From IMG/VR virus record IMGVR_UViG_3300043395_000420, positions 1 to 64,000 of that record: DNA of 64,000 bases. The stretch is one strand, 5' to 3'. The notes under the pieces are model-generated. The model saw nothing but the letters and a program-made list of their open reading frames with translations, did not search any database and was not told where the DNA came from. This document shows, piece after piece, positions 20,669 to 64,000 of this stretch (its first letter is position 1; every line of letters begins with the position of its first letter). Made by a program: the position numbers and the translations under genes. Source of the stretch: a virus.

Positions 20669-20805
20669 CCTTGACCTCTATACCGTTTCAAGTAGTTTTT
20701 ACTTGTTTTTAGTTTACTTGATTTCTTTTTAGCTACAACCCCAGGACGTCTTTTACGGGCGTTCTTGGGTGCGTAGTTATTCTTTGCAGTATTTACTCTA
20801 GCCAT
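20665..20805 (-). CDS. 46-aa very basic protein ending YRGQG (absent from ORF track)
   Basis: Translates MARVNTAKNNYAPKNARKRRPGVVAKKKSSKLKTSKNYLKRYRGQG*; TAATG-coupled to the upstream gene. Confidence 0.8.
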   Translation of the reverse strand: MARVNTAKNNYAPKNARKRRPGVVAKKKSSKLKTSKNYLKRYRGQG

Positions 20806-21272
20806 TACTTCTTTTTCTTTTTAGTAGATCCACCTTTCTTAAAACCAATAGGAGGAGCACCTGCAGCAGCCATACCTGCTTTCATAGCTAACTTGGTTAT
20901 ATCTTCTTTGGGAATACCTGTTTTATTACTAGCATAACCTACAGGATCTTGACCTATTCCACTAAGTTCTTTACCAATATTTTGCATACTGCCGGATAGA
21001 TAATCTTTAGCTAAATTATTTTTATACCTCATGCTTGCAAATGGTTTAAATATACCAAGACCACTAGTAGCTTTTTTTTCTAGTTTTTGTGTCTTAGCAC
21101 TTTTTTCAAAACCTGCTCCTTTCATCAAACCACCTGCAGCAGTATTTATTCTATTATCTATAAGCTTGTTACCAATAAAGTTAAGACCCATTCCTGCTTT
21201 AGGTAACTGTCTTGCTTGTTTAGCAATAGCATCCAGATTATTGTTATCTGGTTTCATTTTTTTATTCTTCAT
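20805..21272 (-). CDS. basic late protein with FKKGG tail
   Basis: K-rich, low complexity, ends GFKKGGSTKKKKK. Confidence 0.75.
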   Translation of the reverse strand: MKNKKMKPDNNNLDAIAKQARQLPKAGMGLNFIGNKLIDNRINTAAGGLMKGAGFEKSAKTQKLEKKATSGLGIFKPFASMRYKNNLAKDYLSGSMQNIGKELSGIGQDPVGYASNKTGIPKEDITKLAMKAGMAAAGAPPIGFKKGGSTKKKKK

Positions 21273-21907
21273 TATTTCTTTTTTTTAGAATACATACGTT
21301 GAACTTGATCCATAGATGTAACAGGTCCTCCTTTTTTAAAACTAACAAATCCTTTAACAGGACCTTTAACTGGAGTTGATGTTTGTTTCATCCTTTGAAT
21401 ATTATCTTTTATTCTACCTATAAAAGTAGGTTTATCAGATTTATATCTAGTTTTTGATTCAGCTAATCTTTCTTTTTCTTGCTGAGTTCTTGTATTTTTT
21501 TCATCATAACCTGCATCAGATGCATATCCTCCTGATGTTTTTCTACTTTTACCTTGCATATTATCTCTACCACTCCATGCTCTTTCTTCATTTGCTTTTG
21601 ATGCTTTACGTGCTTCAGCAGATTTTTTCATTTCATTAATACTGCTTTTAACTTTTGCAGCAGATGCTTGAAGTTCTTCTTTTTTATTTTTAAAACCTGA
21701 AGCAACTGAAGCAGCCACACTACCTTTAAGCATTTGAGGGCTACCTGAATATGAATCATGTACAATATTTCTATTGTAGTCATAACCTTGTTCAGCAGCT
21801 CTTGCTTTTTCTTCTTTGCGTGATTGACTATTCATTTTAATAGTATCAATTGCAGACTTAACAGGTCCTGGCCCTCCTACCTGATACTTTTTTATTTTCT
21901 TTTTCAT
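21272..21907 (-). CDS. basic late protein bracketed by YQVGG and FKKGG motifs
   Basis: K-rich, TAATG-coupled to the next gene. Confidence 0.75.
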   Translation of the reverse strand: MKKKIKKYQVGGPGPVKSAIDTIKMNSQSRKEEKARAAEQGYDYNRNIVHDSYSGSPQMLKGSVAASVASGFKNKKEELQASAAKVKSSINEMKKSAEARKASKANEERAWSGRDNMQGKSRKTSGGYASDAGYDEKNTRTQQEKERLAESKTRYKSDKPTFIGRIKDNIQRMKQTSTPVKGPVKGFVSFKKGGPVTSMDQVQRMYSKKKK

Positions 21908-25139: not shown

Positions 25140-28100
25140 TTATCCTCCACCTTGCATGTTCCTAATACTTATAAAATTTTTAGTCGCAAGTATTGGATCT
25201 GTTTGTGTACCTGTAATACCAAAGAACTTAAATCCTGTATTAAGAAACTTAGGAGAACCTTCTTTTTGGAAACTATAGGGTCCGACATCTCTTACATAGT
25301 AAGCCTTGTCATCTCCTTGTGCTAAGTCAACTAGTTGTCCTAATAACTTAACAAGATTTCCCGCAGTTTGAGTAACAGCTAAACTCTTGAAAGTCAGCAT
25401 TTCAATATAGTTATTAAGACCTACTCCGGGTAAAGGTATCCAGTTCATTTGCTCTTGTCTAGTCTTTAACATAAGGGCTAACATACTATTTGACATATAA
25501 CCTCCTAGTTTAAAAGGGTGTTCTGGATCCTCAACTGTTTCAAATATGCCCATGTTCAGTGGCAATGCACCTGACTTCTTTCTGAGTTTTTCATACTTAT
25601 CTTCATCATCTGCATCAAATCCGAAGAGTAAAGCAATCATAAGACTCATACCTACTAGTATACCTGCTTCCATGATTACTTTAGCAAATGCTTGCTTTTG
25701 TTCTGGAAGAAGAGAAGAAAAAGACTTACCTCCTGTAGCAATACCTTCTTTTAATGCACGTATTGCTTCTATGTAATAACCAAGATATGAATCATTAAGA
25801 CCTACATCATATCTTGCTTTAGGATCAAGTAGGTTTCCACGGAATTGAAAACGGTTAAGTAACATACGTAAGAAGAATCTTTTTAAGAACATAATCTGTC
25901 TATAGAAAAAGAATCTATCTGCCTGAGAGTAGTCAAACTTACCAAATGCACCATTTACGTTATTAGATACAGCCTGTATTTTATTACGGTACATTTTAAA
26001 TTTAGATCCTCCTATACCCCATTCTGGATCAATACCTTCTCTTAATTGAATATTACCATCTTTAAGTTCCCATGCTTCTATGTATGGAATCATTTTCTTT
26101 TCTCCGTCAATAGTTATTTCTACTAACTGAGCATGCATCATAGCACCAAATAAACTTAAGTTGGCATTAAGTTCTGTCCATTTACGAGTATTAGTAAGAA
26201 GATTGGCTGGTTCTAGTAAATCTTTAGCAAAGGTTCTTGTTAGGTTTTCTCCTAGTTTTTCTTCAAATCTTCCGGATGTTGGATCAAATATTTCTGTGAG
26301 TTGTACATCCAATGACTTAGGTCCATACTTATATATCTGAAAAGATATTTCTGCCATAGTTTTGTTAGACCATATTGTACCCTTTGCGTAGTCCCTGTTA
26401 CTATAAAATCTTCCGGCTGCTCCTTCAATTACTGACTGTATTCTTGCACTTAAAGAGTTACGTACTGCAGACTCTATGTTTACAGCAAAGAATCCTAATG
26501 CAGATGTCTTCAGCATTGATGTAGCTATACTGTTTGCTAGTTTACTTTCAGAGAATATACCCGTATTATATTTACCTTCAAACTCTCGTTCTATAAATGC
26601 GTTAATTGCCTGGGCTCTAGTAGATAAACCTTTTTTGTTAAGGGGTTTTTCTATGGCTCTATTAATCATGTTTTTCTTTTGGTACTGATTAATAATATCT
26701 AGTTGTTCTGGGTCATTAACTAGATTTTGAAGAGTTCTTGCTACAGGACTCATCTCTCTCAACTTAGCATTACGTTCTAGAGAAAACATATATCTCATAG
26801 TACCCGTTAGTACATCTAATGAGGTGTCATCTAATGATAAGTAGTATTTACCTTGAATAGGTATTTTGTTTACTTGGTCATCAAACATATCTAACTTAGC
26901 ATATTCAATACGTTCTTGTGCATTGAATCCGCGTTCTTGGTCATCTGCTGTACGTTGAAAGAATTCTTTTACCTTTTGTGAAAATGTAGATATAGGATTT
27001 TGTTTTACTAAGTTACCGGCTTCGTCTATAAAGTCTTTATTTTGTACTGCTTCTAGGTTGGACATACGGAATCTTGGTATCTCTAAACCTAAACGTTCTT
27101 CGGGTGCTTTATCTTCTTGTAATTCTAAATGTAAATCTATTAGTTTCATTAATAGATTATATGTATTAACATCAGAATTCTTAAGTTTAAAGAACTCATT
27201 GTTTACATATGTGGTATCAGGAGTACCATCATCGTTACGTACATCAAGTTTTGGTAGCCAGTTGTAACCATCCCAGTTTGCTTTAGTAATATCTCCCATT
27301 GCTATGGCTTGACGGATACTAACTTTTTCTGTCATGTATCCTGCTGCAGGATCACGTTTAACTTGATATGTAAAGTATTTACTAGTTGGTATTCCGGGTA
27401 TTGTTCTCTTACTACCGTCAGGTTCTGTGATTACAGTAGACTCATACATGTTAGAATCGGCCGGTCTAGTTATATTCCATGCTGAGGTTCTAACATATCT
27501 AGGACTAGATAATCTAAACTGTTTACTATATACATCTTTTAAGATATGATTAGCATCAAACCATTCTCTGAATTCTTTAGAGTTTGCACGCATCATATCT
27601 ACAAATGCTGTATTCTCTAGTATAATGTCATCAATGTTTGTTGCATCAAATTCTCTAATGTTTAATGCCTGAAATGCTTGTTGAATATCATCTCCAAAAT
27701 AGTTATAGAAACTATTCATTATATCTAAGTAATCCGAGGTAGGTTCTGTTTTTTGTAACTCATCTAACTCTGTATACTTAGTAAGTATCTCTTCATTAAT
27801 TTTTGTTTCTTCTACAAGCAGTGCTTTGTCTAATGGATCAAGAGACTTATTACGTCTGTTTAATACTAGTTTTTCTAGTTCCTCAAGTCTATCTTGTTCA
27901 TCTATTGTAAGTTTTGCAGTAGTATCTCCTCTTCTATATTTTATTCTTTGTGTTACAAGTTCTTGATACTCTTTTTGTTCTATCTTAGTAAGACCTGTTC
28001 TTGTAATAGATTTTTCTTTTTCTTCAAGGATTTGCTCATCCAGTTTTTTAATTTCTGCAAGAACGTCTTCAGGCATTTCCAAACCTGATGTTTGATTATC

Positions 28101-30767
28101 TTTATCCTTATATCTGCCTAGTAATAGATTACGTTTATCATACAGATCTAATAACTTATCATTGCTTATGTCTACGGCAAGTCTTAGTAGTATTTCTTTT
28201 TGTCTTTCTTTTAGGGTAACAAGTTCTGCCATGATTGCAGCACGTCTTGTATAATACTCAGGTTTAATTCTAACCCTAGTATTATTTTTTAACCATTCGT
28301 CTACCTTAGAATCGTAAAGATTTGTACCTGGTTTAATATTATTATCAATTAACTGCTGTACAAATTTCTTATATGCACTTTGAAATACTCCGTTTAGAGG
28401 TATCTCATCATACATATCTTTTGTCTTGGCGTTGTATTCCTGTAGACGTAATGCTATTTCTTTTTCTTTACCTGTCTTTTTGTTACCGTTAGAATCTATC
28501 AATGAAGATAGTTCTTTCTTTTCTCTTTTATATTCTTTTAGTTCATCTAGTAAGTCTTGATTATCTTCATCCTTACTAATGATACGTTCTATGTCTCTTA
28601 TCTTAGTATTAATTGCCGTAAGTCTTTCACCGGCTTCTACACCAATAGCATCTTTTTCTAATAAGAACTGACGTTCGTAGTACTTATCTGTATACTCTGT
28701 ATGAAAATACTTACGTTCCCATTTAAGTTTATCCTGAATAAGTTGTCTTACTACAGAATAGTCTCCGGATTTTGCTGCTTCCTCTTTTGCTTTTTCTATT
28801 TCATAGTTCTTTTGATCTATGTCTTTTTTATAATTCATCCAAGGATTTGCATATGTATAAACCTGCCTTTCCTTGAACTCGTTGTTTTCTCTACCACCTA
28901 CTGTATCTCTAAATGTAACTCTTCTACCAAGTTCTCCAATATTAGTTGGATTAAATCCAGCAGCATCAAGAAATGGCTTAAGAGCAGTTGCATACTCATT
29001 GGCTCTTCTTTGTGCCTTAGTCTGCATGTCTATAAAGTTATTCTTTACGTATAAAGAAAACCCAAAGATTACGGGGTCTTGATTATTCATGTACCCTTCT
29101 AAGAAAGAATTAAGAGCATGAGCATCTCCGAGTTCTCCTTTAAGAAGAGACTCTATCTTTTCAGGAGATAGTTTTAGTTCTTCCCATTCTCTAGTACGTG
29201 CTTTAATTACTTGTTCTGGAGCACCTTTCCTAGTAAGATAGTCTATTGCTGCAGAATACTTAGCATCTATCGCTTCCTTGAGAGGGATAAGAGTATCATA
29301 AAGTATTTCGGAAACACCATCTGTATAAATACTATTTGTATGTACTTTACTTTGTACCATCCTACTACGAATCTTTGTGATAAGTTCGTATAAGGGACTG
29401 TCACTATCTATACCTGCTTTAGTAAATGTCTTCTCATATTCTTTAATAAGAGACTCCATAGTACTAAGTAATGAGTTAAGATAGAACGCAGTTTTTAAAC
29501 TGTCTTTGTTATTTACATCTTTAGATATTTCTCTTAGTTGGTCATTAATACGTTTAACCATAACATCCAACTGCTCTATACTATTAATAAACGCGAGCAT
29601 TTGTGCACGTTCATAGGTAGCATCCTGCATTGCTTGGTCTATACCGTTTTGGTAATCCTTTAGTAAAGATCTAATCTCATTAATATCTTTACGTTCATAT
29701 TCATTCTTAAGTTCCGACAGGGCCTCTCTAAACTCCCGGTCATTCTTCATCTTCTTAAGTATAGATTGTACACGGTCATATAAGCTACTAATAGAACTCT
29801 GTAGTTTACCTTCATTACGAAGAGTAATCAGGTCATTAATAAACTTATCATGGTCAGCCGCATATGCCGCAAAAGAGTCATCAGTTACAAGTTCTTTATT
29901 AAAGGTAAACTGGTTATTGGCCTCAAGCATCCGGGCTAATTCAAGTATAGAAGTAGATTCAGATAAGGAAGATATGTCAATACGTTTACCAAAGATCTTA
30001 CGTAGTGCTTGTTTAATAGCATATAATATTTTCTGTACTATGGATGAGAGATTGGGAGAAATATTTTGTTGTAGAGATTTTAGGTTGGCAATGTCAGTTA
30101 ACGTTTTTACTATCACCTCCTCTGCAAAGTATTCTGTCCCTTCTGCTAATGACGGATGAGATGCCTTGACATCTTCAATAATCTGTGGGTTGGTAGCAGA
30201 TATTTCAGCATATAGTTTATCAAACAAAGATTTATTTTCTTTTGCTAGGGCCCTTACTATAGGATGACAGAACTCATGGAATACTGTCTTAGCCGTTACA
30301 AAGTCATTTACTAGATATACTGTATCTCCTAGAAAGAATCCGGGTTTACCATTTCTATACTGGTTTTCCGGTGCTAGATTAGCAGTTATTGCTGCTGCTT
30401 CTTCTGCTGTAACCATTCTATACTGTATACCAAGGTTACGTTGTAATGCTTCTGCTATTTCTATTATTGCAGATCTAGATGACAGGTCTTTAAATACTTC
30501 TTTGTTTACTACAGGTTCTGCCATTACATGGTAGTCAGGTCTTCCGGCAACATATTGTCCGAAACCATCATACGTATCTGTAACTACTTGTTTATCAGAT
30601 AGTTCTAATGCATAACCTTGATCGTTTAGTACAGGTAAGAACTCTTCAGGGGTAGGTAAACTATCCATGTTACGTTCTTTAGCATAGCGTAATGCCTTGT
30701 CAGCAAGATGCTGTCCAAACTTTTCTTTTAACGCGTCAAATTCCGGGGTGTTTCTACTGCAAGCCAT
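25140..30767 (-). CDS. giant virion cargo/ejection protein with zincin domain (1875 aa)
   Basis: HEFCH..EE zincin motif, long helical body, C-terminal TM-like segment; third gene of the crAss-like giant-protein trio. Confidence 0.8.
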   Translation of the reverse strand: MACSRNTPEFDALKEKFGQHLADKALRYAKERNMDSLPTPEEFLPVLNDQGYALELSDKQVVTDTYDGFGQYVAGRPDYHVMAEPVVNKEVFKDLSSRSAIIEIAEALQRNLGIQYRMVTAEEAAAITANLAPENQYRNGKPGFFLGDTVYLVNDFVTAKTVFHEFCHPIVRALAKENKSLFDKLYAEISATNPQIIEDVKASHPSLAEGTEYFAEEVIVKTLTDIANLKSLQQNISPNLSSIVQKILYAIKQALRKIFGKRIDISSLSESTSILELARMLEANNQFTFNKELVTDDSFAAYAADHDKFINDLITLRNEGKLQSSISSLYDRVQSILKKMKNDREFREALSELKNEYERKDINEIRSLLKDYQNGIDQAMQDATYERAQMLAFINSIEQLDVMVKRINDQLREISKDVNNKDSLKTAFYLNSLLSTMESLIKEYEKTFTKAGIDSDSPLYELITKIRSRMVQSKVHTNSIYTDGVSEILYDTLIPLKEAIDAKYSAAIDYLTRKGAPEQVIKARTREWEELKLSPEKIESLLKGELGDAHALNSFLEGYMNNQDPVIFGFSLYVKNNFIDMQTKAQRRANEYATALKPFLDAAGFNPTNIGELGRRVTFRDTVGGRENNEFKERQVYTYANPWMNYKKDIDQKNYEIEKAKEEAAKSGDYSVVRQLIQDKLKWERKYFHTEYTDKYYERQFLLEKDAIGVEAGERLTAINTKIRDIERIISKDEDNQDLLDELKEYKREKKELSSLIDSNGNKKTGKEKEIALRLQEYNAKTKDMYDEIPLNGVFQSAYKKFVQQLIDNNIKPGTNLYDSKVDEWLKNNTRVRIKPEYYTRRAAIMAELVTLKERQKEILLRLAVDISNDKLLDLYDKRNLLLGRYKDKDNQTSGLEMPEDVLAEIKKLDEQILEEKEKSITRTGLTKIEQKEYQELVTQRIKYRRGDTTAKLTIDEQDRLEELEKLVLNRRNKSLDPLDKALLVEETKINEEILTKYTELDELQKTEPTSDYLDIMNSFYNYFGDDIQQAFQALNIREFDATNIDDIILENTAFVDMMRANSKEFREWFDANHILKDVYSKQFRLSSPRYVRTSAWNITRPADSNMYESTVITEPDGSKRTIPGIPTSKYFTYQVKRDPAAGYMTEKVSIRQAIAMGDITKANWDGYNWLPKLDVRNDDGTPDTTYVNNEFFKLKNSDVNTYNLLMKLIDLHLELQEDKAPEERLGLEIPRFRMSNLEAVQNKDFIDEAGNLVKQNPISTFSQKVKEFFQRTADDQERGFNAQERIEYAKLDMFDDQVNKIPIQGKYYLSLDDTSLDVLTGTMRYMFSLERNAKLREMSPVARTLQNLVNDPEQLDIINQYQKKNMINRAIEKPLNKKGLSTRAQAINAFIEREFEGKYNTGIFSESKLANSIATSMLKTSALGFFAVNIESAVRNSLSARIQSVIEGAAGRFYSNRDYAKGTIWSNKTMAEISFQIYKYGPKSLDVQLTEIFDPTSGRFEEKLGENLTRTFAKDLLEPANLLTNTRKWTELNANLSLFGAMMHAQLVEITIDGEKKMIPYIEAWELKDGNIQLREGIDPEWGIGGSKFKMYRNKIQAVSNNVNGAFGKFDYSQADRFFFYRQIMFLKRFFLRMLLNRFQFRGNLLDPKARYDVGLNDSYLGYYIEAIRALKEGIATGGKSFSSLLPEQKQAFAKVIMEAGILVGMSLMIALLFGFDADDEDKYEKLRKKSGALPLNMGIFETVEDPEHPFKLGGYMSNSMLALMLKTRQEQMNWIPLPGVGLNNYIEMLTFKSLAVTQTAGNLVKLLGQLVDLAQGDDKAYYVRDVGPYSFQKEGSPKFLNTGFKFFGITGTQTDPILATKNFISIRNMQGGG

Positions 30768-44026: not shown

Positions 44027-44036
44027 TGTATTATAA

Positions 44037-49826: not shown

Positions 49827-49828
49827 AG

Positions 49829-53079: not shown

Positions 53080-55659
53080 TTAGTCTTGTTCTTCTTCTAA
53101 GTTTGGATATGATGTTAATGCTGGATTTCCATATATACCTCTTTGCATATTATACCAATCAGAATCATTACTAGATTTTGCACTACGTGATGATGTTCTC
53201 TTATTATAACCCGCCATCTCTTTTGCAATATCTGCTATTTCTTCAGAACTTAATTCTCCTAGTCTTTCATCTTCTCTTAGTCTAGCATAAATGTCTGCAA
53301 AACTATTTGCAACACCTGGCTCCATAGGAGTAGGTTTGTAATAGTATAATGCTCCTGCTGCTGCCGGTGATATTTGATAATTAGGATATAGCATATTAAG
53401 ATTATATGCCTGTGCCTCATTAGTTTTAGCCTGCACAAGATTATTTACAAATTCATTAGCTGCGGCACGTGTTGAGTTATCATAGTTTTGATTAACTGCT
53501 GTAAGTTCATCATAATATGTTTTAGCAAGTTGTACATTAGCAAGTCTTTCTTGATTTTCTACTGCTGCTTTTTGTTGTGCATAATTATTATATATACCAA
53601 TGTTGGCATTATGAACTTGTCCAATAACATTAGCAGCATTTTCAAACATATTACCAGACATACCGGTCATTTTACCGGGTATCTGTTGTGGAGAACTTGC
53701 TGCCAACGCATCTTTCATAATAGCAAGTTGTTCATTTCCAGCAGCAATCTGTCTTTCTGGAGTAAGATATGCTACCTCGGGAGACATTAAATCTACACTA
53801 AATTTATTAGGCATAAACTTTTGTAGACTTGCTAAGTTTCCTAATGCTTGAGCCATCTTTAACTGATCCTGTAAAAACATTTCAGGAGGTGTATAAGATG
53901 GAACTTCTTGATCTTCTACAGGTTCGTATTCATAATCATACTCATCATATGCATTTTCTTCTAATGTAGGATCTCCTTTAATACCTGCTAATTGTCCAGA
54001 TGTTGTATTAGTATAAACAGCATCTACGGGAGATATATAAGGATTTTTGCCACCTTCATCTCCTTTACCTCTTTGAGCTTTCTTAAAATCAGGTAGAATA
54101 TCGGTATCTGCGATATTTTCAAATGCCCAGTATGCGGCTTGTTGTGCAGCAGCATTTGTTGCATTAGGCATTTCTATACCTACATTCTTAGCATATTCAT
54201 TTAGTGTTTTATTACTTACACCATATAACTTTTTAGTTAAATCATTGTCAGGACTATTAGGTGCTTTAGAAACATCATAACCATGTGCTACAAATGCAAG
54301 ATTTCTTTTTTGCATTTCTAAGAACTGGTCTCTTACTTCTTCCGGACTTAGTTTTTTAAGATCTTCTATTTCAACACCTCTTTGCGTTAAACTCTGTTCT
54401 CTATATGCTTTTTTATCATCAAATACTTTTGAATACTCATTATATAAAGCATCCATTACAGCAGGATCTTGAAGACGTTGCTTTAAATATTCATACCTAT
54501 TAGCAATATCTTTTTTACCCTTAAATGTTTTATCAAGATCATCCCCTGTATATTCCGGAAACTGAAATGCTTTACTTACAACTTTTTTATAATTACCGTC
54601 TTTGTCTAAAATAAAGACTTTACTTTTATCAGATGCTGCATTATATTTTTCTCTTTTAGCTTTTTGGTATGCTGCTTCTGTATCATAATCAGCTCTTCTA
54701 ATAATAATAGCATCTTTTGGAATAGGTCTTTTTACTTTTTTCTTTTTTCTTGTTCCTCCACCCGATGCATATTCTACTAAACCACCGTTTTTAAACTCAT
54801 CAGGCATGATACCTTCAGGTGCCGGATTACCATTTCCATCATAGAATACGGGTCCTCCTTCTTCCATATAAAGATACACTCCTTGTGTAGGATCGAATTC
54901 ATTATTCTTTTTACGGATACCTTGAATAAAATTATTAAGACGTGCTGTACGTCCTCCATATTTCATAGGTGCTTCATCAAGTTCTTCTTCATACATTTCA
55001 GGAGACTCTTCCATTTCTTCTTGAGGAAGTTGTCCTTGATTATTCATTCCAGGAACTGGAGGTAGTACATCTTCTGGACGTACTCCAATACTCATTAAAT
55101 ATGGAGTTGCTATTACAGGAATACCTCCAGGGTATCCTTTCATAGATTCTTGAATTAAGGCTAACTTTCCTAGTTTAAGATTAAACTGCTTAATCATATT
55201 TTCAGCAGTAAGTTTTGCTAATTTATCTTCAGTAGGATCCGCAAGTATTTGTCTATATTTATTAATGTTATAGTTCTTAGCAATCTCTGCTGGAGTATAA
55301 CCTTTCTTTTTTATAGGCATACTAAACTCTTTCTGTATATCAGGATCTTTAATACGCATACTTGCTGTATCACTAAATATAAAAGAGTCCGGTGGTACGG
55401 ATAAAGGCACACCTCCCTCATAGTGACGTTTACCGTTTATTTTATAATGAGCTGGTAAGTCATCAACATTAGGAACATATACTGTCTCTCCTCCCTCTGC
55501 TTCTATATTTGCTTCGTCTCTTGGTACTCCGGATAAACTGCTTCTAAGACTTATAGGTTTCTCTGAACTATTATTTTGAATATAGGTAGGTGCCATTTGT
55601 GTAAATGGAAATCCTCCTTTTTTCATATTAGGTAATGAAGTTATTTTAACTTTTTTCAT
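53080..55659 (-). CDS. virion structural/cargo protein (859 aa) with multiple xxGG motifs
   Basis: NIEAEGGE..G.RH..GGV..IFSD N-domain typical of crAss-like structural proteins. Confidence 0.75.
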   Translation of the reverse strand: MKKVKITSLPNMKKGGFPFTQMAPTYIQNNSSEKPISLRSSLSGVPRDEANIEAEGGETVYVPNVDDLPAHYKINGKRHYEGGVPLSVPPDSFIFSDTASMRIKDPDIQKEFSMPIKKKGYTPAEIAKNYNINKYRQILADPTEDKLAKLTAENMIKQFNLKLGKLALIQESMKGYPGGIPVIATPYLMSIGVRPEDVLPPVPGMNNQGQLPQEEMEESPEMYEEELDEAPMKYGGRTARLNNFIQGIRKKNNEFDPTQGVYLYMEEGGPVFYDGNGNPAPEGIMPDEFKNGGLVEYASGGGTRKKKKVKRPIPKDAIIIRRADYDTEAAYQKAKREKYNAASDKSKVFILDKDGNYKKVVSKAFQFPEYTGDDLDKTFKGKKDIANRYEYLKQRLQDPAVMDALYNEYSKVFDDKKAYREQSLTQRGVEIEDLKKLSPEEVRDQFLEMQKRNLAFVAHGYDVSKAPNSPDNDLTKKLYGVSNKTLNEYAKNVGIEMPNATNAAAQQAAYWAFENIADTDILPDFKKAQRGKGDEGGKNPYISPVDAVYTNTTSGQLAGIKGDPTLEENAYDEYDYEYEPVEDQEVPSYTPPEMFLQDQLKMAQALGNLASLQKFMPNKFSVDLMSPEVAYLTPERQIAAGNEQLAIMKDALAASSPQQIPGKMTGMSGNMFENAANVIGQVHNANIGIYNNYAQQKAAVENQERLANVQLAKTYYDELTAVNQNYDNSTRAAANEFVNNLVQAKTNEAQAYNLNMLYPNYQISPAAAGALYYYKPTPMEPGVANSFADIYARLREDERLGELSSEEIADIAKEMAGYNKRTSSRSAKSSNDSDWYNMQRGIYGNPALTSYPNLEEEQD

Positions 55660-55660
55660 A

Positions 55661-57853
55661 TTAATCTATATATTCAATAATTGCACCGCCTGCTTTTAGT
55701 TGTTTAATGGTAGCATCATCAAGGAAGTATACACCTCCTTCTTCATACATTTCTCCACCTGACTTTCCGTAGTACATGTTGAAATTACGTTTGTCGGGGA
55801 ACTGATTACCAAATTGATCATATACTCCTTTATCACCGGTAACAGGATTGACAAGATTTTCATATCCAAACTTGTTCATTACGTCACCTTTTTTCTGTTT
55901 TGCAGCATCTCTTCTATTAGCTGCCATTTCCATAATAGGAGCAATGTAGGCACCCATTCCAAAGTTTTGACCCATTGTAATATCCTGACCAGTATTTATC
56001 CAGTTTTGTTCAGGAAGTTCTGGTGCTTTACCTATAGGCATTGTTGTTTGAGCAGTAGCTGCTTGATTATAACCTAAACCTTGGTTATTACCAACATCTT
56101 CTCCTGTGTCAATCTCCCACATACCGGGATCAAATACCTCACTAGGTCCTTGGTCTCCCTGATACTTTCTCATGAATTTAGTAAGACCTCCTCTTCTGTA
56201 TGTTTCTACCATAGGAGACATACCTTGTTGTCTAATAGGACCGTAGGGCATGTCATCTGGTGAAAGATTAACAGGCGTACCATCATATACGTCAGAAAAC
56301 GTTACTATTCTATTTGATGGATTTGCTGTATTTATTCTAGCAGGTATAGGAGTAGGATTATCTATCCATTCACTATCCATTTCCTGTTGTTTCAATGCTT
56401 CTATTTCGGCCTTTAACTCTTCTGTTGTTCTTGGTATATCAGATGATACAAAATTCATAGGAGTACCAAAAGGATTTTGGGGAGTAGATATACCACCTAT
56501 CGGATTTGTAGTTGTAATCTTTGCAGGAGGTACAACTCTAGGTAAAAATCCAGGTTTTACTGGAGAACTTGGCATTTTATCTTTATTTCCTAAAACCAAA
56601 CCTTCCCATTCATCAGGATATATATTATAAGGATCTTTAGGATTGACCGGTTTAGTCTCAGTAGTTTTTTTATTATCACCTACCCCAGGAGCATTTTGCC
56701 ATTTCTTCCATACATCACTGTTATCTGCTATAATAGATGCTGCACCATTGGGCATAGATGCCATACCAGACATCATTGCAGGAGGCATCTGACCTTTCTT
56801 ACCAAACTCATAATGGTATGTTCTTTCTCTAAGTTGTCCGGGACGACCGGGATCAGAACTACCTGTTAATAAGTTTCCAAATCTACTTGCCGCATTCCAT
56901 CTATATTTATCTCTAATATCCATAACAGACAATCTTGCCTGCATATCTTTTACACTACTTTCATTATTTTTGATATCTTCTTCTTCATCAGCAATTTCTT
57001 GTTCTTCTTCCGGAGAACAGTTACCTGATGCACATTTAGATTTCTTACCTTCTAATGCTTCTATTCTTTTATTTTGTTCATCAATCTTTGCTAATAACTC
57101 CTCATTAGTTAAGGGTTTACTTTCTTCTTGCTTTTCTCCTGTATCAACGTCTGACTGAAATGTTTGAAGACCATACTTAGCTAAACCTAAGTCTTTAGGT
57201 AACATTGCTTTATATGGATCAGGCATGTTAATAGGTTGCGCATCTTCTTGCATATATGGATTAGCAAGATCATATGTATGTATTTTTTTAGCATAAGGTG
57301 TAGAATTAGCCATTGCGGTCATACGCATGTTATTTGCTAAATCATATACCTTATCGGCATTTACCTTACTATACATATTATTATAGTTATTCAAAAAGTT
57401 GCTGGCCTTACTAAAGTCCATACCTGTAAAGGCATCACTATTAGATACTGTATGTGGACCCCCATCTTGAAACACACCTTTCTCTTGAGCCATGTTCATG
57501 GCATCTTCCATTAACCTTTTTTCATTTGCCCGGGCTGCCATATCCTTGACTTTACCCATAAACTTATCTAGTTTATTAATATAGAAGTTTGGTGCTACAT
57601 GGTTATTAGTAATACCTCCTTCGGCCATATATCCCATTCTTGCAGCATCAGATACTTGTCTATCTATAAAACTAGAACCCATGTTCATCATAGGAAGTTG
57701 TCCGGTTTGCATTGCCATGTTAGACATTCCGGAAGTCATACTTCCTCCTACCTGCATGGTAAATGGTACTTGTGGGGTAGGATGTCCATAGTTAAAGAAC
57801 TGTTGCATTGATGCTACTTGAGGAAATACCTCTCTGTTTGTACGCTTATTCAT
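55661..57853 (-). CDS. low-complexity Met/Pro-rich late protein (730 aa) with multiple xxGG motifs
   Basis: ORF; MQVGG, MAEGG, FQDGG, YRRGG, YEEGG. Confidence 0.75.
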   Translation of the reverse strand: MNKRTNREVFPQVASMQQFFNYGHPTPQVPFTMQVGGSMTSGMSNMAMQTGQLPMMNMGSSFIDRQVSDAARMGYMAEGGITNNHVAPNFYINKLDKFMGKVKDMAARANEKRLMEDAMNMAQEKGVFQDGGPHTVSNSDAFTGMDFSKASNFLNNYNNMYSKVNADKVYDLANNMRMTAMANSTPYAKKIHTYDLANPYMQEDAQPINMPDPYKAMLPKDLGLAKYGLQTFQSDVDTGEKQEESKPLTNEELLAKIDEQNKRIEALEGKKSKCASGNCSPEEEQEIADEEEDIKNNESSVKDMQARLSVMDIRDKYRWNAASRFGNLLTGSSDPGRPGQLRERTYHYEFGKKGQMPPAMMSGMASMPNGAASIIADNSDVWKKWQNAPGVGDNKKTTETKPVNPKDPYNIYPDEWEGLVLGNKDKMPSSPVKPGFLPRVVPPAKITTTNPIGGISTPQNPFGTPMNFVSSDIPRTTEELKAEIEALKQQEMDSEWIDNPTPIPARINTANPSNRIVTFSDVYDGTPVNLSPDDMPYGPIRQQGMSPMVETYRRGGLTKFMRKYQGDQGPSEVFDPGMWEIDTGEDVGNNQGLGYNQAATAQTTMPIGKAPELPEQNWINTGQDITMGQNFGMGAYIAPIMEMAANRRDAAKQKKGDVMNKFGYENLVNPVTGDKGVYDQFGNQFPDKRNFNMYYGKSGGEMYEEGGVYFLDDATIKQLKAGGAIIEYID

Positions 57854-57893: not shown

Positions 57894-60800
57894 TTACTTG
57901 TTTTTCCTAGGAAGACTCTTGATCTTTACTTTCTTTATAGCACCACCGTTCTTTTTAAAATAAAAGTCTCTACCATCAGGATTTGATATACCATCAGGTA
58001 TCATGTTTTTAGCTGAAGTTTTATATAAAATTTCTTCTTTACTTTTATTAGGTATAGGTAATAATCCAATTGTTGCACCATATGCATTATTAAATATATC
58101 TTCTAATGCTTCTCTTCCTTTATACTTTAATGGTCTATTATCATTAAATATTGTACCTAGTTCATGTCCTACTCCCATAGCATTTGCACCTAACCAACCT
58201 AATGCTGGAGAAATTACAGGTATGTTTCCTGTTTTCTTTGCTATAGCTTGTTGAGTATACATACCAGCTAAAGGATGTCTAAAATTATCTACTGGATCTT
58301 CTCCTGGTTCTATTCCTTCTTCTGCTTCACGAGCTGCTTTACCCATAGGATCTCCTAATGATTTATTTAATCTATCCTCATATGACATTCTTGTTTCAAT
58401 AACAGGTAAAGATCTTTCACTATGCGTAGATTCCCAGATATCATTTTCCGGATTATATATCATAGAAAACTTTTGCAATTCTGTATTAGGAATAACATTA
58501 CCTTTTGAATCTATATATCTAGCATATGTTTTAAAATTCGGATCTAAATATATACTTTCACCTGTTGGTGTTTTGTATTCTTTACCTTTAGCACCACCAT
58601 CTTGCATTCTTACTAGACCTCCATTCTTAAATTCATATTGACCTAGATAGCTACCACCATTTTTGAAACTAACAAACTGTTTATTGACAGCTGGTTTATC
58701 TGTTTGACTTTCATAAAGTTTAGAACCTAGATAACCTGCACCTATTGCAGGTACTGCAACTGGTAATATTTTAATTGCAGCTCTTTTTTCTGCTAAAGAT
58801 GTTTCTGGTTTAAAATGTTTATTGAGATTTCCTTCTTCAATTAAGTAATCTGTAAAATCATCTCTATCCTGTTTAAGAATTTTTACAGCTTCTTCCATAG
58901 ATATACCGTGATCTTTCATCATATCTTTAGCAGTTTTTAATCTAGCTTTACCTAATTCTGAATGTAATTCTCCAAGACCTGATAACCATGTTTGATAAGT
59001 ATATTTACCATTATCAGGAGCGGTTGGTTCTACCATAATACTTTTAAACATTTTAGCTAAATCATTTTTATCATGATTTACATAATAAGCGTAATTAGGA
59101 TCATGGTGTTGTACAGCATCTATCCAGTTATTAATTAACTGTCTATCATGATTTATTTCATGAATACCTACCCCACCTACTTCAGTAGGATTAACCAACA
59201 TATTTTGCTCTAAATCAACTAATGATTTTTTAGTTTTTGTTTTAAAAGGATTTGACCAACTCCAAGGTAATTTTTCTTTTTTTATGTGAGTTGTTATAAT
59301 AGGTTTTTTTCTAGTACCTAATGTAATTGTACTATTATTTAGTCTAACACCGCCTATATCGTCAATATTTTGTCTTAAAAAGAGTTTTTCAAGTTCTAAC
59401 AAGTTTTGAAAACTAGGGTCATCCTCATTAAAATATACTAACTTGTTTCTTTCATCATTTGGTAAAACCACTTGTAGTTTATCAATATCATAATCATTAT
59501 TTGCTTTCTTTAACTCTAATGCTTTTCTTTCAAATTCAGGATCATATATACTAATACTATTTTTTAAATCATCTATGGCTTTATCTAATTCGGCTTTTTC
59601 ATTAAAAGTAGTTAACCATAGAGTATTTTCTTGTCTTTCTAATGCTTCTTTTTCATCTGTTAATCTTGCAAGATTTTTTCCTTCTGTATCACTAGCTAAT
59701 TCTAATTCTATTTCATTAGATCTTTTATCCAACTCAGCTACTTTATCATAATATTCTTTATCTTTAATAGCTTTTGCATCCTTAAGTTTTTGTATTTCAG
59801 GTTTTATTTTTTCATAATCTTCTAAACCTTGCTTACTATATGTCCATAATTTATCAAACTCTGTAGCTTCATCAAATGCTTTTTGTTGGTCTGCTCTTGT
59901 AAAACTTTTTGAATAACCCGATTCAGGTACTCTGTCTATACTTACTTTTTGACGTTCTAAATCTTGCAGACCTTCTAACTCTATTTCGTCTAAACTCTTA
60001 CCAATTTTGTTTTCTTTAAAAAATTCATCTATAGTACGATTGTTATATACTTTAGAAGGTATGTTTTTTGAAACTTTTTTTGCAATTGACCCAAATGGTA
60101 AAAATCCTGCAATGTTTAGTCCTGCTTCTCCAGCACCACCCCAAGTAGTATATGTTTCTTTTTCTCCTAAGTCTCTACCAACTCTTCCTATATCCATTAG
60201 TACAGATGCAGGATTGAATGCTCCTATTATATCACTCATAGGAGATGATGTAGGATAGTTACCACTTAGGTTACCTTGTGGTATATAACCTCTTTGTATC
60301 AATGATCCTAATGCATCAAGAGGTTGATCCATTGCATAAATAAACTGGTGCTTTAATCTTTCAAAACCTTCAGGTGCAGGTTTAAGAGTCCCTTGTTGAT
60401 CTGCCAAATATTTTTCAAAATCTTCTTTTTTAGTATCTATTACTAAAGGTGCCATTGATGTACCAGATTCCCATATATTATCTTGCACATCAAATAAAGA
60501 CATGTTCTGATCTGGCGTTATAGCATTACCTTTTTCATCTACATAGTAACGTTGGTTCTTAAACCTAGGATCTAAATATAAACTTTGTCCTGTAGGAGTT
60601 TTATACTCTCTCCAACCTTTACCTTTAGGACTAACTTGACTTGGTGAGTCATCTCCCTGCATCTTTACTAACCCACCGTTTCTAAACATATACTTTCCTA
60701 AGTAAATACCTCCACCGGTTTCCATTGCACTTAAACCTTTAGTATATAAATTCTGATGACCTCTTGATCTATTCTCCCATTTTTCAGGAGTAATTCTCCA

Positions 60801-63800
60801 ACTTCTAATAGGTTCAAGTGCTTTTTCACCAGGTGTTCCTAAATGAATATAATGCGCATATTTATTAACAGGGTCATAATCCGGATGATGAGTTTTCATA
60901 TAATCCTGAACACTTTGATTATATAACTCATTTGTTTCTTGTTCTAATCTTTTAATTTGTTCTCTGATAGGTTGCTGTTCTTCCCACGTGTATTTGCTTA
61001 ATGATTCTCCTAATTCACGCGCCTTTTTCATTTTTTCCTGATAAGGTTGAGTCTTTAACCATTCAGATAAATTTTTACTAGTACCTTCTTTTTTAATTAA
61101 AAAATCAAAAGCATCTGTTGCCTGATTTGATCTTTCTGTTCTTAATAGTTTTTTATCATATGTTAGAGGGGGAAATAATTCATCCATTTTAGCCTGTTTT
61201 ACTGCCGCAAACTCATCCATAAAATCATCTAGTACATCGTCAGGTACAAATTCACCATCAGCAACACCATATTTTTTTCTTAAATCTTTTTGTAATTTTG
61301 GAACCTCATCTAAAAATGTATTTAATCTATCATATTTTTCTTGGCTTATACTACCTCTTTCTAGATAATGTTTAAGATCGTCTCTTGTAACACCTCTTAA
61401 AGTTTCTAAACTAACTCCTCTTTCACCAGCTTTAGGTAAATATTCATCATAGTACTCGGGTCTATTTTCAGTTATCCAGTCTTGTCTATTAGCTGATGAA
61501 AAGTTTGTAGGTCGTTTTGCTTTAACAATATAACCGTTACCATAAGTGTATCCTTCAGCTGTACGCATTGAGTTACTTGTATACAAACCTTCTAAACCCC
61601 TACCTAAGTAATGATTATCTAATGATGCTCTTCCATATCCTGTACTTATAGGAATATGCGTTGCCATATATTCAGCTGCACCTTGAGGGTTATTTATATA
61701 ATCTATACCATTTTTTTCAAAATTGTCTGTAATGTTTTTCCATAGTTCTTTACCTTTTTCAGGTCCGTATTCTCTAACTAATGCTTTTTGTAATTCATCC
61801 CAATTAGTACTTATACCTCTTACAAAAGTATTATGTCTATTCATTAAACCTCTAATAGTTCTATTAGTTAGTTCATCTGATTGTGCTATTCTTTCTAGGT
61901 TAGCAGGAAGTTCGTATCCATATTGATTTGCAAATTCTTGTAACTTTTGAAGATCTTCTAAATTTTTAGATGCATTTGCAGAAGAACTTGTCACATTTTT
62001 TAACAGGGTTTCTGTAGTAATAAATTTACCGGTTTGTTTTGCACCACTTATAGCAGCTTTTCCTATACCTACACCAACAAAGTCTAATGCATTTAGTCCT
62101 GTTGCAATTGCTGCATCTGTAATATTTGATGTTGTAGGATTATCAACAGCTTTAGATATTATATTATATGTATGTGGTAATTGAGTAATTCCGTATCCTG
62201 TACCTAATGCAGCTATTGTATTACCTACTGTAATTCCAGGAACTGCAGAACCTGCTACAATCATTGGTGCTTCTAATGATCCTATTACAGCTGGTGCCGC
62301 AAATGGTGCTGCTAATACTCCAGTTGCTAATGCTGACTTCTGTACAAAATCTTTTTGATTATCAATAATGTACTGTCTAGCTTTTTCAGGAGTCATTTTT
62401 GTTACGTCCTTTTTTATCTTACCAACTATTTTTTTATCTTGCTGATCCCATGTACGTTTATCTTTAGATAAAGTTTTAGTAGTCTGATCTACTTCAGTTT
62501 GTTGATCAGGTTTTAAAAAATGTAAAGTTCTAGTATGTGGATTATACCCACCTTTTCCTTCATAAACTAGTTTACGAATTTGTGCGTCATATCTATCATC
62601 TCCAGAATACATTGCACGATTATCAAACCATTCAGGATTATCTTTATAAGTAAGAACTTGATTAGGATATGTATTAAGGTCTACTTGTCCTTTGTCTTGA
62701 TATTTTACAAGTCCCCCATACTGTTTCTGAATTTTATTCTTTTCATTGTAGTAATCTTTTTCTTCAGACTCTACAGCTCTCATAACATATTTCTTATTTA
62801 CATTATCCCAGACAGCTTCATAGTTTGGTTGCTGACCTGTTCTATTGCCATAATTAAGTTGACCAATGTTTTGAGATTTTCTAAAAGTCTTACCCAGACC
62901 TATATTAGTATCAATGTTCTTTAAACTAGGTACTGTTACTGGTAATCTTTTAAGAGGTAATGGTTCTATCCTGTTTAATGTTTCATCATCTACTATTCCT
63001 AGTCCAATATTTGGATCAAAATTAGGATCTCCTGTCCATACTGGTATTGTTTTAGGAGCAGCATATCTAGGACTCCATGCTCTACCATCCCAGTAAACTC
63101 CTACAGGTCTAATTTTAGGATGTACAACATCTGCTGATGTATGATACATAATATTATCATCAGTAAGTCCTAAAGATTTGTAATACTTAATAAGGTCTCT
63201 GTCTTCTTTTGTGACAAAGTAGTTATCAGTAAACATATCTTTTTCATTTATAAAGTCTTTAGCCATTGGGCCGTAACTTTCTAAACCTGGAACAACTCTT
63301 GGAATTCTATTATTTTTTAAATTTTTTACACTAAAGTCTGAAATAGGTGGTGCATTTTTTATACTTTTTCTTGCAGCTGTGTATTGGTTACTAGGAGCAT
63401 TTTTATTCATTAACCTATTCTGCATAACCATAGCTTGATTCAAAATAGTACTATCTTGATATGCAGCAAATGCTTTTAAGAACTCATCTTTATCATCAAT
63501 ATATCGTGGTACTTGTCCTTTCTTCTGATATTTAGTAAGTCCCCCGTATTGCTTTTTAATTTTATTTTTCTCATTATAGTAATTTTGTTCTTCTGGTTCT
63601 ATTTCCTGCATAGTCCATTTTTTATTTGTGTTGTCCCATACGGCTTTATAATTTGGTTGTTGACCCGTACGATTTCCATAATTTAATTGACCTATACTTT
63701 GAGAATCAAATCTACCTTTACCTAAACCTATTCTTGTATCAATTGATCTTAACTGTGGTACAGTTACTGGTAATTTAGTTAGTGGTTTAGATTCTATTCT

Positions 63801-64000
63801 TTCTAATGGCGGTTCAAATACTACAGGTTGAGTTGGTTTTTTATAAACTGGAGCATTTGGATCAGATAAAGGTAATCCCCAACCATACCAACTACCCCTT
63901 ATTGGTTCTAATTCTTCTTTATTTAAGTCTTCTAGTCTATCAAAAGCATCATGAACATTTCTGGGTACAAAACCACGTGTTGTTAGTATTTCTCTTGCTT
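57894..64000 (-). CDS. modular polyvalent protein (5'-truncated; more than 2030 aa) with internal repeats and ART-like, zincin and DxxRH..NN domains
   Basis: The frame of ORF 57894..63611 stays open to the window edge (129 further codons, including a repeat copy). Confidence 0.85.
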   Translation of the reverse strand, partial: AREILTTRGFVPRNVHDAFDRLEDLNKEELEPIRGSWYGWGLPLSDPNAPVYKKPTQPVVFEPPLERIESKPLTKLPVTVPQLRSIDTRIGLGKGRFDSQSIGQLNYGNRTGQQPNYKAVWDNTNKKWTMQEIEPEEQNYYNEKNKIKKQYGGLTKYQKKGQVPRYIDDKDEFLKAFAAYQDSTILNQAMVMQNRLMNKNAPSNQYTAARKSIKNAPPISDFSVKNLKNNRIPRVVPGLESYGPMAKDFINEKDMFTDNYFVTKEDRDLIKYYKSLGLTDDNIMYHTSADVVHPKIRPVGVYWDGRAWSPRYAAPKTIPVWTGDPNFDPNIGLGIVDDETLNRIEPLPLKRLPVTVPSLKNIDTNIGLGKTFRKSQNIGQLNYGNRTGQQPNYEAVWDNVNKKYVMRAVESEEKDYYNEKNKIQKQYGGLVKYQDKGQVDLNTYPNQVLTYKDNPEWFDNRAMYSGDDRYDAQIRKLVYEGKGGYNPHTRTLHFLKPDQQTEVDQTTKTLSKDKRTWDQQDKKIVGKIKKDVTKMTPEKARQYIIDNQKDFVQKSALATGVLAAPFAAPAVIGSLEAPMIVAGSAVPGITVGNTIAALGTGYGITQLPHTYNIISKAVDNPTTSNITDAAIATGLNALDFVGVGIGKAAISGAKQTGKFITTETLLKNVTSSSANASKNLEDLQKLQEFANQYGYELPANLERIAQSDELTNRTIRGLMNRHNTFVRGISTNWDELQKALVREYGPEKGKELWKNITDNFEKNGIDYINNPQGAAEYMATHIPISTGYGRASLDNHYLGRGLEGLYTSNSMRTAEGYTYGNGYIVKAKRPTNFSSANRQDWITENRPEYYDEYLPKAGERGVSLETLRGVTRDDLKHYLERGSISQEKYDRLNTFLDEVPKLQKDLRKKYGVADGEFVPDDVLDDFMDEFAAVKQAKMDELFPPLTYDKKLLRTERSNQATDAFDFLIKKEGTSKNLSEWLKTQPYQEKMKKARELGESLSKYTWEEQQPIREQIKRLEQETNELYNQSVQDYMKTHHPDYDPVNKYAHYIHLGTPGEKALEPIRSWRITPEKWENRSRGHQNLYTKGLSAMETGGGIYLGKYMFRNGGLVKMQGDDSPSQVSPKGKGWREYKTPTGQSLYLDPRFKNQRYYVDEKGNAITPDQNMSLFDVQDNIWESGTSMAPLVIDTKKEDFEKYLADQQGTLKPAPEGFERLKHQFIYAMDQPLDALGSLIQRGYIPQGNLSGNYPTSSPMSDIIGAFNPASVLMDIGRVGRDLGEKETYTTWGGAGEAGLNIAGFLPFGSIAKKVSKNIPSKVYNNRTIDEFFKENKIGKSLDEIELEGLQDLERQKVSIDRVPESGYSKSFTRADQQKAFDEATEFDKLWTYSKQGLEDYEKIKPEIQKLKDAKAIKDKEYYDKVAELDKRSNEIELELASDTEGKNLARLTDEKEALERQENTLWLTTFNEKAELDKAIDDLKNSISIYDPEFERKALELKKANNDYDIDKLQVVLPNDERNKLVYFNEDDPSFQNLLELEKLFLRQNIDDIGGVRLNNSTITLGTRKKPIITTHIKKEKLPWSWSNPFKTKTKKSLVDLEQNMLVNPTEVGGVGIHEINHDRQLINNWIDAVQHHDPNYAYYVNHDKNDLAKMFKSIMVEPTAPDNGKYTYQTWLSGLGELHSELGKARLKTAKDMMKDHGISMEEAVKILKQDRDDFTDYLIEEGNLNKHFKPETSLAEKRAAIKILPVAVPAIGAGYLGSKLYESQTDKPAVNKQFVSFKNGGSYLGQYEFKNGGLVRMQDGGAKGKEYKTPTGESIYLDPNFKTYARYIDSKGNVIPNTELQKFSMIYNPENDIWESTHSERSLPVIETRMSYEDRLNKSLGDPMGKAAREAEEGIEPGEDPVDNFRHPLAGMYTQQAIAKKTGNIPVISPALGWLGANAMGVGHELGTIFNDNRPLKYKGREALEDIFNNAYGATIGLLPIPNKSKEEILYKTSAKNMIPDGISNPDGRDFYFKKNGGAIKKVKIKSLPRKNK
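58428..58668 (-). repeat. internal repeat B, copy 2
   Basis: Matches 60465..60725. Confidence 0.85.
60465..60725 (-). repeat. internal repeat B, copy 1
   Basis: GG.YLG.Y.F.NGGLV.MQ...EYKTPTG.S.YLDP.FK...Y.D.KGN.I...IWES. Confidence 0.85.
62682..62978 (-). repeat. 99-aa internal repeat A, copy 2
   Basis: LNRIEP..LPVTVP..IGLGK..IGQLNYGNRTGQQPNY.AVWDN..YYNEKNKI.KQYGGL.KYQ.KGQV. Confidence 0.9.
63510..63806 (-). repeat. 99-aa internal repeat A, copy 1
   Basis: Ungapped match to 62682..62978; period 828 nt. Confidence 0.9.

Follow-up and report, generated by a model that had tools for sequence, protein, structure and literature searches.

The DNA analyzed here (the window, 64,000 nucleotides) corresponds to bases 1-64000 of a 93,245-base-pair viral contig, IMG/VR record IMGVR_UViG_3300043395_000420, whose completeness was estimated at 78%. 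Judged by its sequence, the source virus is a divergent, uncultured crAss-like phage. Matches to PHROG families were obtained for the terminase, the portal, and the major head protein, and the Pfam families CrAss_Ring_2 and CrAss_Ring_1 were detected at contig positions 70586-71254 and 69681-70583, respectively. The subject of this study is a short element recurring in a subset of the late proteins of this phage, i.e. a Gly-Gly pair with a bulky residue three positions upstream ([FMY]-x-x-G-G). The late operon, located on the minus strand, starts with Ring 2 and Ring 1, followed by a virion structural gene encoding a muzzle-like protein of 1765 amino acids (aa) and a run of giant genes. The products after the muzzle-like protein measure 2162, 730, 859, 1060, 1929, 4419, and 1875 aa; several small genes follow, and proteins of 211 and 155 aa come last. 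In the phage crAss001, the order is gp44 (muzzle), gp45 (cargo C1), gp46 (cargo C2), and the polymerase-associated gp47, gp49, and gp50 (PMC10172136). Since the gene order is the same as that of crAss001 gp44-gp50, the genes for the 2162-, 730-, and 859-aa proteins fill the cargo slot. Their products are probably virion cargo that the phage injects, an assignment based on synteny with crAss001 and not on homology. These genes lie between the muzzle gene and the RNA polymerase block, the position of crAss_CARG1-type cargo; the crAss_CARG1 profile itself (PF25725) gave no match at E ≤ 1 in five genomes of the clade.

To quantify enrichment, counts of [FMY]xxGG were compared with those in 500 shuffles of each protein. 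All three cargo-slot proteins contained more copies than expected: five compared with 0.47 in the 859-aa protein (p < 0.002), five compared with 0.78 in the 730-aa protein (p < 0.002), and five compared with 1.17 in the 2162-aa protein (p = 0.008). The 211-aa protein contained two copies (0.15 expected, p = 0.008), and the single copy in the 155-aa protein (0.27 expected) was by itself not significant. For the giant and neighboring proteins, observed and expected counts were 2 and 0.56 (1875 aa), 1 and 1.41 (4419 aa), 1 and 0.77 (1929 aa), and 0 and 0.62 (1060 aa). The replication genes on the plus strand had three copies altogether and no enrichment. When the cargo slot was compared with its neighbors, splitting by genome position and not by motif count, the density was 4.0 copies per 1000 aa in the cargo slot versus 0.36 in the muzzle-like gene plus the polymerase block. 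Phe, Met, or Tyr stood at position −3 of 15 of the 29 Gly-Gly pairs in the cargo slot, but of only 4 of 32 in the muzzle-like gene and polymerase block (Fisher p = 0.002); the background frequency of these residues was 11.7%. A composition artefact is ruled out by the shuffles together with the replication in 79 relatives (see below), and the motif is a real signal that is selected at the protein level.

The initial annotation of the window had listed 22 pentapeptides as copies of the motif. All of them were found in the genes named there, with one copy in the 155-aa, two in the 211-aa, five in the 859-aa, six in the 730-aa, and eight in the 2162-aa protein. Its claim that the motif is rare in the three giant proteins of the RNA polymerase block and in the replication genes was borne out by the shuffle counts and the position split, and the suggested enrichment of late over other proteins proved to be an over-representation in the late cargo-slot genes against a composition-matched background. 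The motif is indeed limited to a subset of late proteins, but this subset is not confined to the five genes of the window: outside it, at 80-83 kb, basic proteins of the head module (96, 117, 135, and 103 aa) also carry the motif, with three copies in the 96-aa protein against 0.09 expected.

The pattern extends to related phages. More than 1300 homologs of the 859-aa protein were found, the best 120 of which hold 312 motif copies compared with 88 expected. We assembled 80 viral loci around such homologs (about 79 divergent relatives) and scored the plus-strand open reading frames (ORFs) by their position relative to the homolog. Ratios of observed to expected copies were 4.0 for gene −2, 6.1 for gene −1, and 4.0 for the homolog itself, versus 0.87, 0.62, and 0.36 for the three genes downstream. 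Gene −1, the equivalent of the 730-aa gene, was strongest (485 observed, 79 expected). Among distinct Gly-Gly contexts, 38.6% of 1697 from cargo genes had Phe, Met, or Tyr at −3, compared with 6.5% of 697 from downstream genes and a background of about 11%; as these contexts are kin by descent, p-values overstate their significance. The same pattern was seen genome-wide in two complete relatives (83-89% identity to this genome in the capsid protein), where enrichment fell on the genes of the cargo slot and on one for a small basic protein close to the capsid gene. In about 80 phages, the motif is confined to this gene set. Full-text searches of the literature on crassvirus cargo, processing, and motifs returned no description of it.

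The major capsid protein is 83-93% identical among relatives, and the cargo-slot proteins are only 30-40% identical or unalignable; by these identities, the shell changes far more slowly than the cargo inside it. Where similarity between homologous cargo proteins broke off, a motif lay no more than 5 residues away in 10.6% of cases versus 4.8% for random positions. Features of the window are compiled in Table 1.

Table 1. Genes and motif-bearing segments in the window.
Feature	Position	Strand	Remarks
155-aa Gly/Ala-rich protein	20805..21272	-	ends with FKKGG and a seven-residue Lys-rich tail
211-aa basic protein	21272..21907	-	motif 11-12 residues from the N-terminus and again 18 before the Lys-rich C-terminus
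1060-aa protein and three giant proteins of the RNA polymerase block	25140..53011	-	negative control; motif not enriched
859-aa cargo-slot protein	53080..55659	-	five motif copies; shuffle test, AF2 model
Disordered linker of the 859-aa protein	54754..54966	-	MKYGG, MEEGG, FKNGG, YASGG; alignment, AF2
N-terminal tag of the 859-aa protein	55612..55659	-	basic strand K-K-V-K-I-x-S-L-P, then MKKGG
730-aa cargo-slot protein	55661..57853	-	fast evolving; six motif copies; 15 representative homologs
C-terminal module of the 730-aa family	55664..55768	-	tandem Gly-Gly motifs, helix, Gly-Gly, terminal strand
2162-aa modular protein	57894..64382 of the contig (57894..64000 in the window)	-	polyvalent-like
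C-terminus of the 2162-aa protein	57897..57956	-	KKNGG and basic tail (K-K-V-K-I-K-S-L-P)
Triple joint, 2162-aa protein	58593..58667	-	FKNGG, FKNGG-L-V-R-M-Q, DGG
HEINH, module 4 of the 2162-aa protein	59148..59162	-	possible zincin metal-binding site; no Pfam match
Joint, 2162-aa protein	60654..60725	-	METGG and FRNGG-L-V-K-M-Q
Joint, 2162-aa protein (repeat A, copy 2)	62688..62726	-	KQYGG-L-V-K-Y-Q-D-K-G
Joint, 2162-aa protein (repeat A, copy 1)	63516..63554	-	KQYGG-L-T-K-Y-Q-K-K-G

In its core form, the element consists of a bulky residue, Lys or Gln, any residue, and Gly-Gly. The family logo showed His, Met, Phe, or Tyr at −3, Gln, Lys, Arg, or Ala at −2, the Gly-Gly pair, and Thr, Val, Leu, or Ile two residues later; a longer version approximates to [LIV]-x-[KR]-[YMF]-[QK]-x-G-G-x-[VTLI]. 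Internal joints (G-G-L-V-K-Y-Q-x-K-G and G-G-L-V-R-M-Q-D-G-G) and N-terminal tags (e.g. M-A-K-K-L-V-K-K-Q-x-G-G and M-K-K-K-I-K-K-Y-Q-V-G-G) share the core [LI]-[VK]-[KR]-[KYM]-Q-x-G-G. Tandem copies spaced 7-8 residues apart were common in the family, and the tandem form xxGG-L-[VT]-[KRE]-[YM]-Q noticed at the outset occurs five times. Copies were located in disordered linkers and termini or, in AlphaFold2 (AF2) models, in turns of small folded elements. The reported preference for protein ends and domain boundaries is thus seen at termini, in linkers, and at module joints; the set is less uniform than it was taken to be, with MEEGG of the 859-aa protein and LKAGG of the 730-aa protein predicted to be turns of small folded elements.

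Some copies are encoded by AAA GGA GGA, and the 155-aa protein alone does not reach significance, as might be expected if the motif arose by chance, as a side effect of composition, or from a nucleotide signal such as the Shine-Dalgarno-like AAAGGAGG. We consider such an origin extremely improbable. A composition effect was rejected in the shuffle tests, the same pattern occurs in the 79 relatives, and the Gly codons at motif sites are split over GGT (28), GGA (28), GGG (5), and GGC (1). As the Gly codons vary, what is constrained is the protein rather than a nucleotide word, and a nucleotide signal or internal ribosome-binding site was ruled out on this ground.

The AF2 model of the 859-aa protein had a mean predicted local distance difference test score (pLDDT) of 70.6, with folded parts at residues 40-200, 310-470, and 590-757. 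All five motif copies were modeled between these parts, at pLDDT below 50 (residues 1-37 and 203-308). Nearly all of 22 aligned homologs begin with M-x-[KR]-K-V-[KR]-I. One homolog of 1265 aa (P0008) has an additional module of about 430 aa immediately behind the N-terminal tag, so the tag stays terminal when modules are added; by eye, this module resembles a peptidoglycan-binding repeat plus a Cys-containing amidase-like part. In the linkers of homologs, the number of aromatic-x-x-G-G copies varies, and one [RKQ]-Y-G-G site is nearly constant, its second Gly being sometimes replaced. MEEGG forms the tip of a weakly predicted beta-hairpin (residues 261-274) and is aligned to turns without Gly-Gly in homologs.

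Within residues 53-186 of this family, 30 positions were invariant in 22 sequences of 30-77% identity, including three Glu, one His, one Ser, and one Asp. The N-terminal domain (residues 40-200) had no Pfam, PDB-sequence, or fold match; it could be an enzyme or a key structural contact. Searches for relatives of known function were likewise negative: (i) the 859-aa and muzzle-like proteins had no match in a PDB sequence search; (ii) neither tblastn of the 859-aa protein nor megablast of the cargo region (53000-64000) returned a match among deposited phages; (iii) with the 859-aa model as query, Foldseek and VIA-align retrieved nothing beyond generic helical-hairpin matches (Z ≤ 8); and (iv) the motif carriers showed no known homology in Pfam and PHROGs. 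A search for related loci using the 730-aa protein alone as query found no match.

The two Gly-Gly pairs in the C-terminal module of the 730-aa protein were invariant in 36 diverse homologs (alignment A2). For this module, AF2 predicted a helix at 93-101, followed by A-G-G and an extended end, which places LKAGG between helix and strand; pLDDT was about 90 for the last ~22 residues only.

In the 2162-aa protein, motif joints occur at residues 277, 553, 1220-1243, 1906-1930, and 2143. Its N-terminal ~80 aa are kept in 52 loci, and the remaining modules are variable and freely swapped among relatives. A stretch of about 150 aa in module 4 has a paralogous counterpart in module 5 (35% identity). 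The last ~15 residues repeat the conserved N-terminal tag of the 859-aa protein, encoded two genes downstream, and the N-terminus has a similar start, R-K-V-R-I-T; the K-K-V-K-I tag in both proteins could represent another tag in common or be left over from the fusion or splitting of genes. For the HEINH sequence in module 4, a rough estimate gave ~0.06 HExxH sites expected by chance in a protein of 2162 aa. Look-alikes in the ESM Atlas, sharing no more than 137-149 features at a score of 0.90, belonged to LPD23, LPD5, and MuF_C clusters, and no LPD, MuF, or MPTase domain of Pfam reached threshold in the 2162-aa protein. A resemblance to polyvalent proteins (Iyer et al. 2017, PMC5512222) is therefore given as a lead only: variable modules stand behind a conserved N-terminus, the gene lies among virion genes, and the Atlas look-alikes carry LPD domains. 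The words 'linker' and 'glycine' are absent from the paper describing that class (PMC5512222).

These placements could suggest a passive seam without any reader, i.e. an autonomous beta-turn or hinge that serves independent folding, module swapping, or unfolded passage through portal and tail. Gly-Gly, Asn-Gly, and Asp-Gly are favored two-residue turn formers, AF2 puts MEEGG at a hairpin tip and LKAGG between helix and strand, the modules of the 2162-aa protein behind the first ~80 aa are exchanged freely, and the ends of similarity cluster near motifs. A plain hinge, however, leaves the preferences for F/M/Y/H at −3 and for Q/K/R/A at −2 unexplained. It also does not account for the tags kept at the very termini of small proteins, where a hinge would have nothing to join, or for the missing motif in the linkers of the giant proteins, which are ejected too. 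We regard this explanation as unlikely.

The small basic proteins show the terminal placement most clearly. No homologs of the 155- and 211-aa proteins were found in the two complete relatives. In the small basic proteins of three genomes, conservation is limited to the N-terminal tag and a C-terminal K-K-G-G-[SAT]-[VI]-K tag, and the middle varies. The N-terminal tags are basic and comprise 11-16 aa, and the Lys-rich tail behind the C-terminal Gly-Gly is constant at 6-7 residues. A scan of a sequence collection with these tags yielded more than 600 pattern matches, only 2 of which were confirmable relatives. The C-terminal M-Q-G-G-G of the 1875-aa protein was considered as a further conserved tag and ruled out, as it is not kept in two relatives.

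Carriers of terminal copies contain 18-24% Lys plus Arg, and the terminal copies are flanked by runs of Lys. Basic versions such as F-K-K-G-G-x-V-K-K-K might accordingly be small DNA-binding arms that anchor internal proteins on the packaged DNA or its leading end. In phage T7, gp7.3 offers a parallel: K84 and K85, which follow G-G 82-83, are labelled at the contact with double-stranded DNA in the tail channel, and the basic N-terminal part wraps the DNA end. Many internal copies with the same core are, however, acidic (MEEGG, MAEGG, YEEGG, FQDGG), so basic flanks are not part of the common element, and we think it very unlikely that DNA binding explains the motif.

The explanation that we tentatively favor is that the motif acts in internal virion proteins as a handle for docking or assembly. 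The handle would be a tight Gly-Gly turn flanked by short strand-like stretches and located in the disordered ends and linkers of cargo, namely of the 2162-, 730-, and 859-aa proteins and of several small basic head-module proteins. The motif would stay uncut and, with its bulky residue and the strand next to it, would dock at a common site of the particle under assembly; the portal wing, the tail-barrel rings, the capsid interior, or another cargo protein are candidates for this site. Several copies per protein would provide avidity, and small basic proteins with two terminal tags could act as two-ended tethers or adapters, like gp6.7 and gp7.3 of T7. Both the reading of the motif by a partner and its uncut state are inferred. 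Enrichment is confined to the cargo slot, here and in 79 relatives, which supports a handle. Further support comes from the copies of the 859-aa protein that are modeled between folded domains with pLDDT below 50, from the terminal tags that appear conserved in alignments of the small basic proteins, by analogy from the Gly-Gly placement in crAss001 gp45 and T7 gp6.7, and from the absence of a recognizable protease in profile searches. As tandem copies are only 7-8 residues apart, multivalent binding suits them better than cutting.

The closest parallel is crAss001 gp45 (cargo C1; Bayfield et al. 2023, PMC10172136; PF25725), which occupies the same slot, after the muzzle gene and before the RNA polymerase block, and is a virion-internal protein with repeated aromatic-G-G motifs at the edges of partner-bound segments. 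We found five A-[YF]-G-G copies in gp45, which ends with G-G and a Lys-rich run. The resolved portal-bound segment spans residues 425-552 and the tail-barrel segment residues 214-245 (PMC10172136); the former starts with the copy at 425-428 and continues through it, and the latter starts just past the copy at 207-210. Unlike in the present motif, where the aromatic residue is three residues upstream, it is next to Gly-Gly in gp45. Sequence similarity between gp45 and the carriers was not detected (hhalign of the 859-aa family against gp45, probability 0.1%). The motif is not mentioned in the crAss001 structure paper, nor do 'cleav', 'protease', or 'proteoly' occur there (PMC10172136).

A second parallel is provided by T7, in which gp6.7 is described as an adapter and gp7.3 as a scaffold. 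The small, disordered gp6.7 binds the portal barrel by loop I and the gp15 cylinder by loop II, and it contacts gp14; in gp7.3, a short C-terminal loop anchors the protein and the basic part holds the DNA end (PMC11784390). In gp6.7, F-G-G opens the resolved gp15-binding loop II (residues 34-50), and the protein ends with F-G-G-K-K. Like the small carriers, gp6.7 and gp7.3 are small, basic, and largely disordered; as virion proteins they work through short linear segments and connect the portal, core, and tail, gp7.3 being in contact with DNA as well. They differ in belonging to another phage family, without homology, in having one or two copies only, and in that Gly-Gly is not known to have been proposed as a shared tag there. 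In the T7 genome (V01146), gp13 also ends with K-G-G, and gp7.3 has G-G-K-K near the resolved C-terminal loop; small internal proteins of podophages may more widely tend to end in Gly-Gly plus Lys.

Several points weigh against an uncut handle. The receptor for the motif is only putative, the crAss001 evidence concerns one site with a differently flavored motif in a distant phage, and the genome is only 78% complete. Adenain trims basic adenovirus core proteins near both ends, a similar layout. The giant proteins of the polymerase block must be packaged too, yet without the motif; these co-packaged proteins are mildly depleted of it (0.6x), and avoidance of this kind is typical of protease sites. 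Finally, the 2162-aa protein is polyvalent-like and contains HExxH, and self-processing by zincin domains has been predicted for that class (PMC5512222).

The depletion and the HExxH are also in line with cleavage, in which the chain would be severed behind Gly-Gly by a protease of the phage or the host, either as the head matures or once the proteins have been injected, so that modules are released and basic ends trimmed. Such cutting would further agree with the position independence of the motif (near N-termini, near C-termini, and at internal joints), with similarity ending near motifs twice as often as at random positions, and with a putative metallopeptidase gene (DUF2201_N with a vWA-like domain, 10061-11263), which is the only clear peptidase-like gene in the contig and lies in the replication module on the plus strand. 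Beside this gene (10061-12455, plus strand), a weak match to the MoxR-type AAA_3 was seen (E = 0.0027, 18 bits; cut-off 27 bits).

Sites of a similar kind are those of adenain (C5), (M/I/L)-X-G-G-X, which are cut after Gly-Gly in adenovirus core and cement precursors. Like the present motif, they have a bulky residue before Gly-Gly and lie near both ends of small basic internal proteins as well as inside larger ones. The bulky residue is, however, at P4 in adenain and C39 sites but at P5 here, both in this genome and in the family logo. C39 double-glycine leaders, the peptidase for which is usually part of an ABC transporter, differ also in length and spacing (15-30 aa with hydrophobic residues at −4, −7, and −12), as the tags here are 11-16 aa long, basic, and without that spacing. 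The residue directly behind Gly-Gly, which would be P1′, is Pro at 4 of 31 local sites and at 27 of 783 in the family. In AF2 models, some copies form turns within folded elements, and the tail behind Gly-Gly is itself conserved in length and charge. Cutting at sites 7-8 residues apart would free tiny peptides. In the crAss001 virion, gp45 residues 425-428 are uncut, with continuous density (PMC10172136); this is the one comparable joint in a solved crassvirus virion and the only direct structural evidence.

Profile searches recognized no protease above cut-off. For C5 (PF00770), neither this genome nor any of four relatives, each of these four at least 99% complete, gave a match at E ≤ 1, a very remote homolog being possible. 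C39 (PF03412) had no confirmed match in the same five genomes; a sub-threshold candidate at 71365-71538 (11.9 bits, this genome only) was not confirmed by hmmscan. The prohead proteases S78 (PF04586) and S77 (PF03420) were absent from the five genomes, and C48 (PF02902) from this genome, the one genome searched. Pfam scans of nearly all remaining ORFs detected no protease above threshold, with a weak match to Peptidase_S49_N, a non-catalytic N-terminal domain (E = 0.0056). Cleavage therefore appears doubtful to us. The initial annotation had proposed a maturation-cleavage or head-targeting signal and a search for a cysteine or Ulp/C39-like protease elsewhere in the genome. None was found, and the protease part is left unsupported by the searches, the P5 spacing, the Pro residues, the turns, and gp45; the head-targeting or loading part persists, by inference, as the best reading.

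Some further features of the genome were noted. Inside the 4419-aa giant protein (gene 30767-44026), residues ~3390-3834 form an SF1 helicase (AAA_30, UvrD_C_2). The small head-module genes include one for a protein with an endonuclease VII domain (contig 80350-80772, minus strand; Pfam E = 2e-15); near it lies a gene for a DUF5856 protein (contig 78918-79343), and a DUF6321 match (E = 9e-19) was obtained among the small ORFs. Between the portal and capsid genes, a 409-aa gene had only a PHROG match of unknown function.

Short terminal peptides common to unrelated cargo of an HK97-fold shell are known from the T4 capsid-targeting sequence and the cargo-loading peptides of encapsulins. Those are single terminal tags, whereas the element described here is also internal and repeated, and its receptor is putative. 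An uncut handle might go further and constitute a transferable, position-independent loading code, in which one conserved receptor site sets which proteins are packed, in what copy number, and in what order; this is possible, but we hold it with little confidence. The same reserve applies to the idea that such a code is the phage counterpart of encapsulin targeting peptides, common to hundreds of crAss-like phages with unrelated cargo.

Crassviruses are among the most abundant phages known (PMC10172136), and they carry megadaltons of protein cargo, including RNA polymerase; how this cargo is selected, arranged, and released is a question raised by the crAss001 structure. If the motif were a cut site after all, it would point to a protease of a kind unrecognized in these phages and would provide another explanation for the parts of gp45 seen in two compartments. 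A tag of five to eight residues on unrelated, fast-evolving cargo gives the question of cargo selection a concrete handle: it can be mutated, transplanted to a reporter, used as bait for the receptor, and searched for in existing electron cryo-microscopy maps and virion proteomes. It also serves as a practical mark of internal virion proteins when uncultured crAss-like genomes are annotated, a task in which Pfam and PHROGs give no matches.

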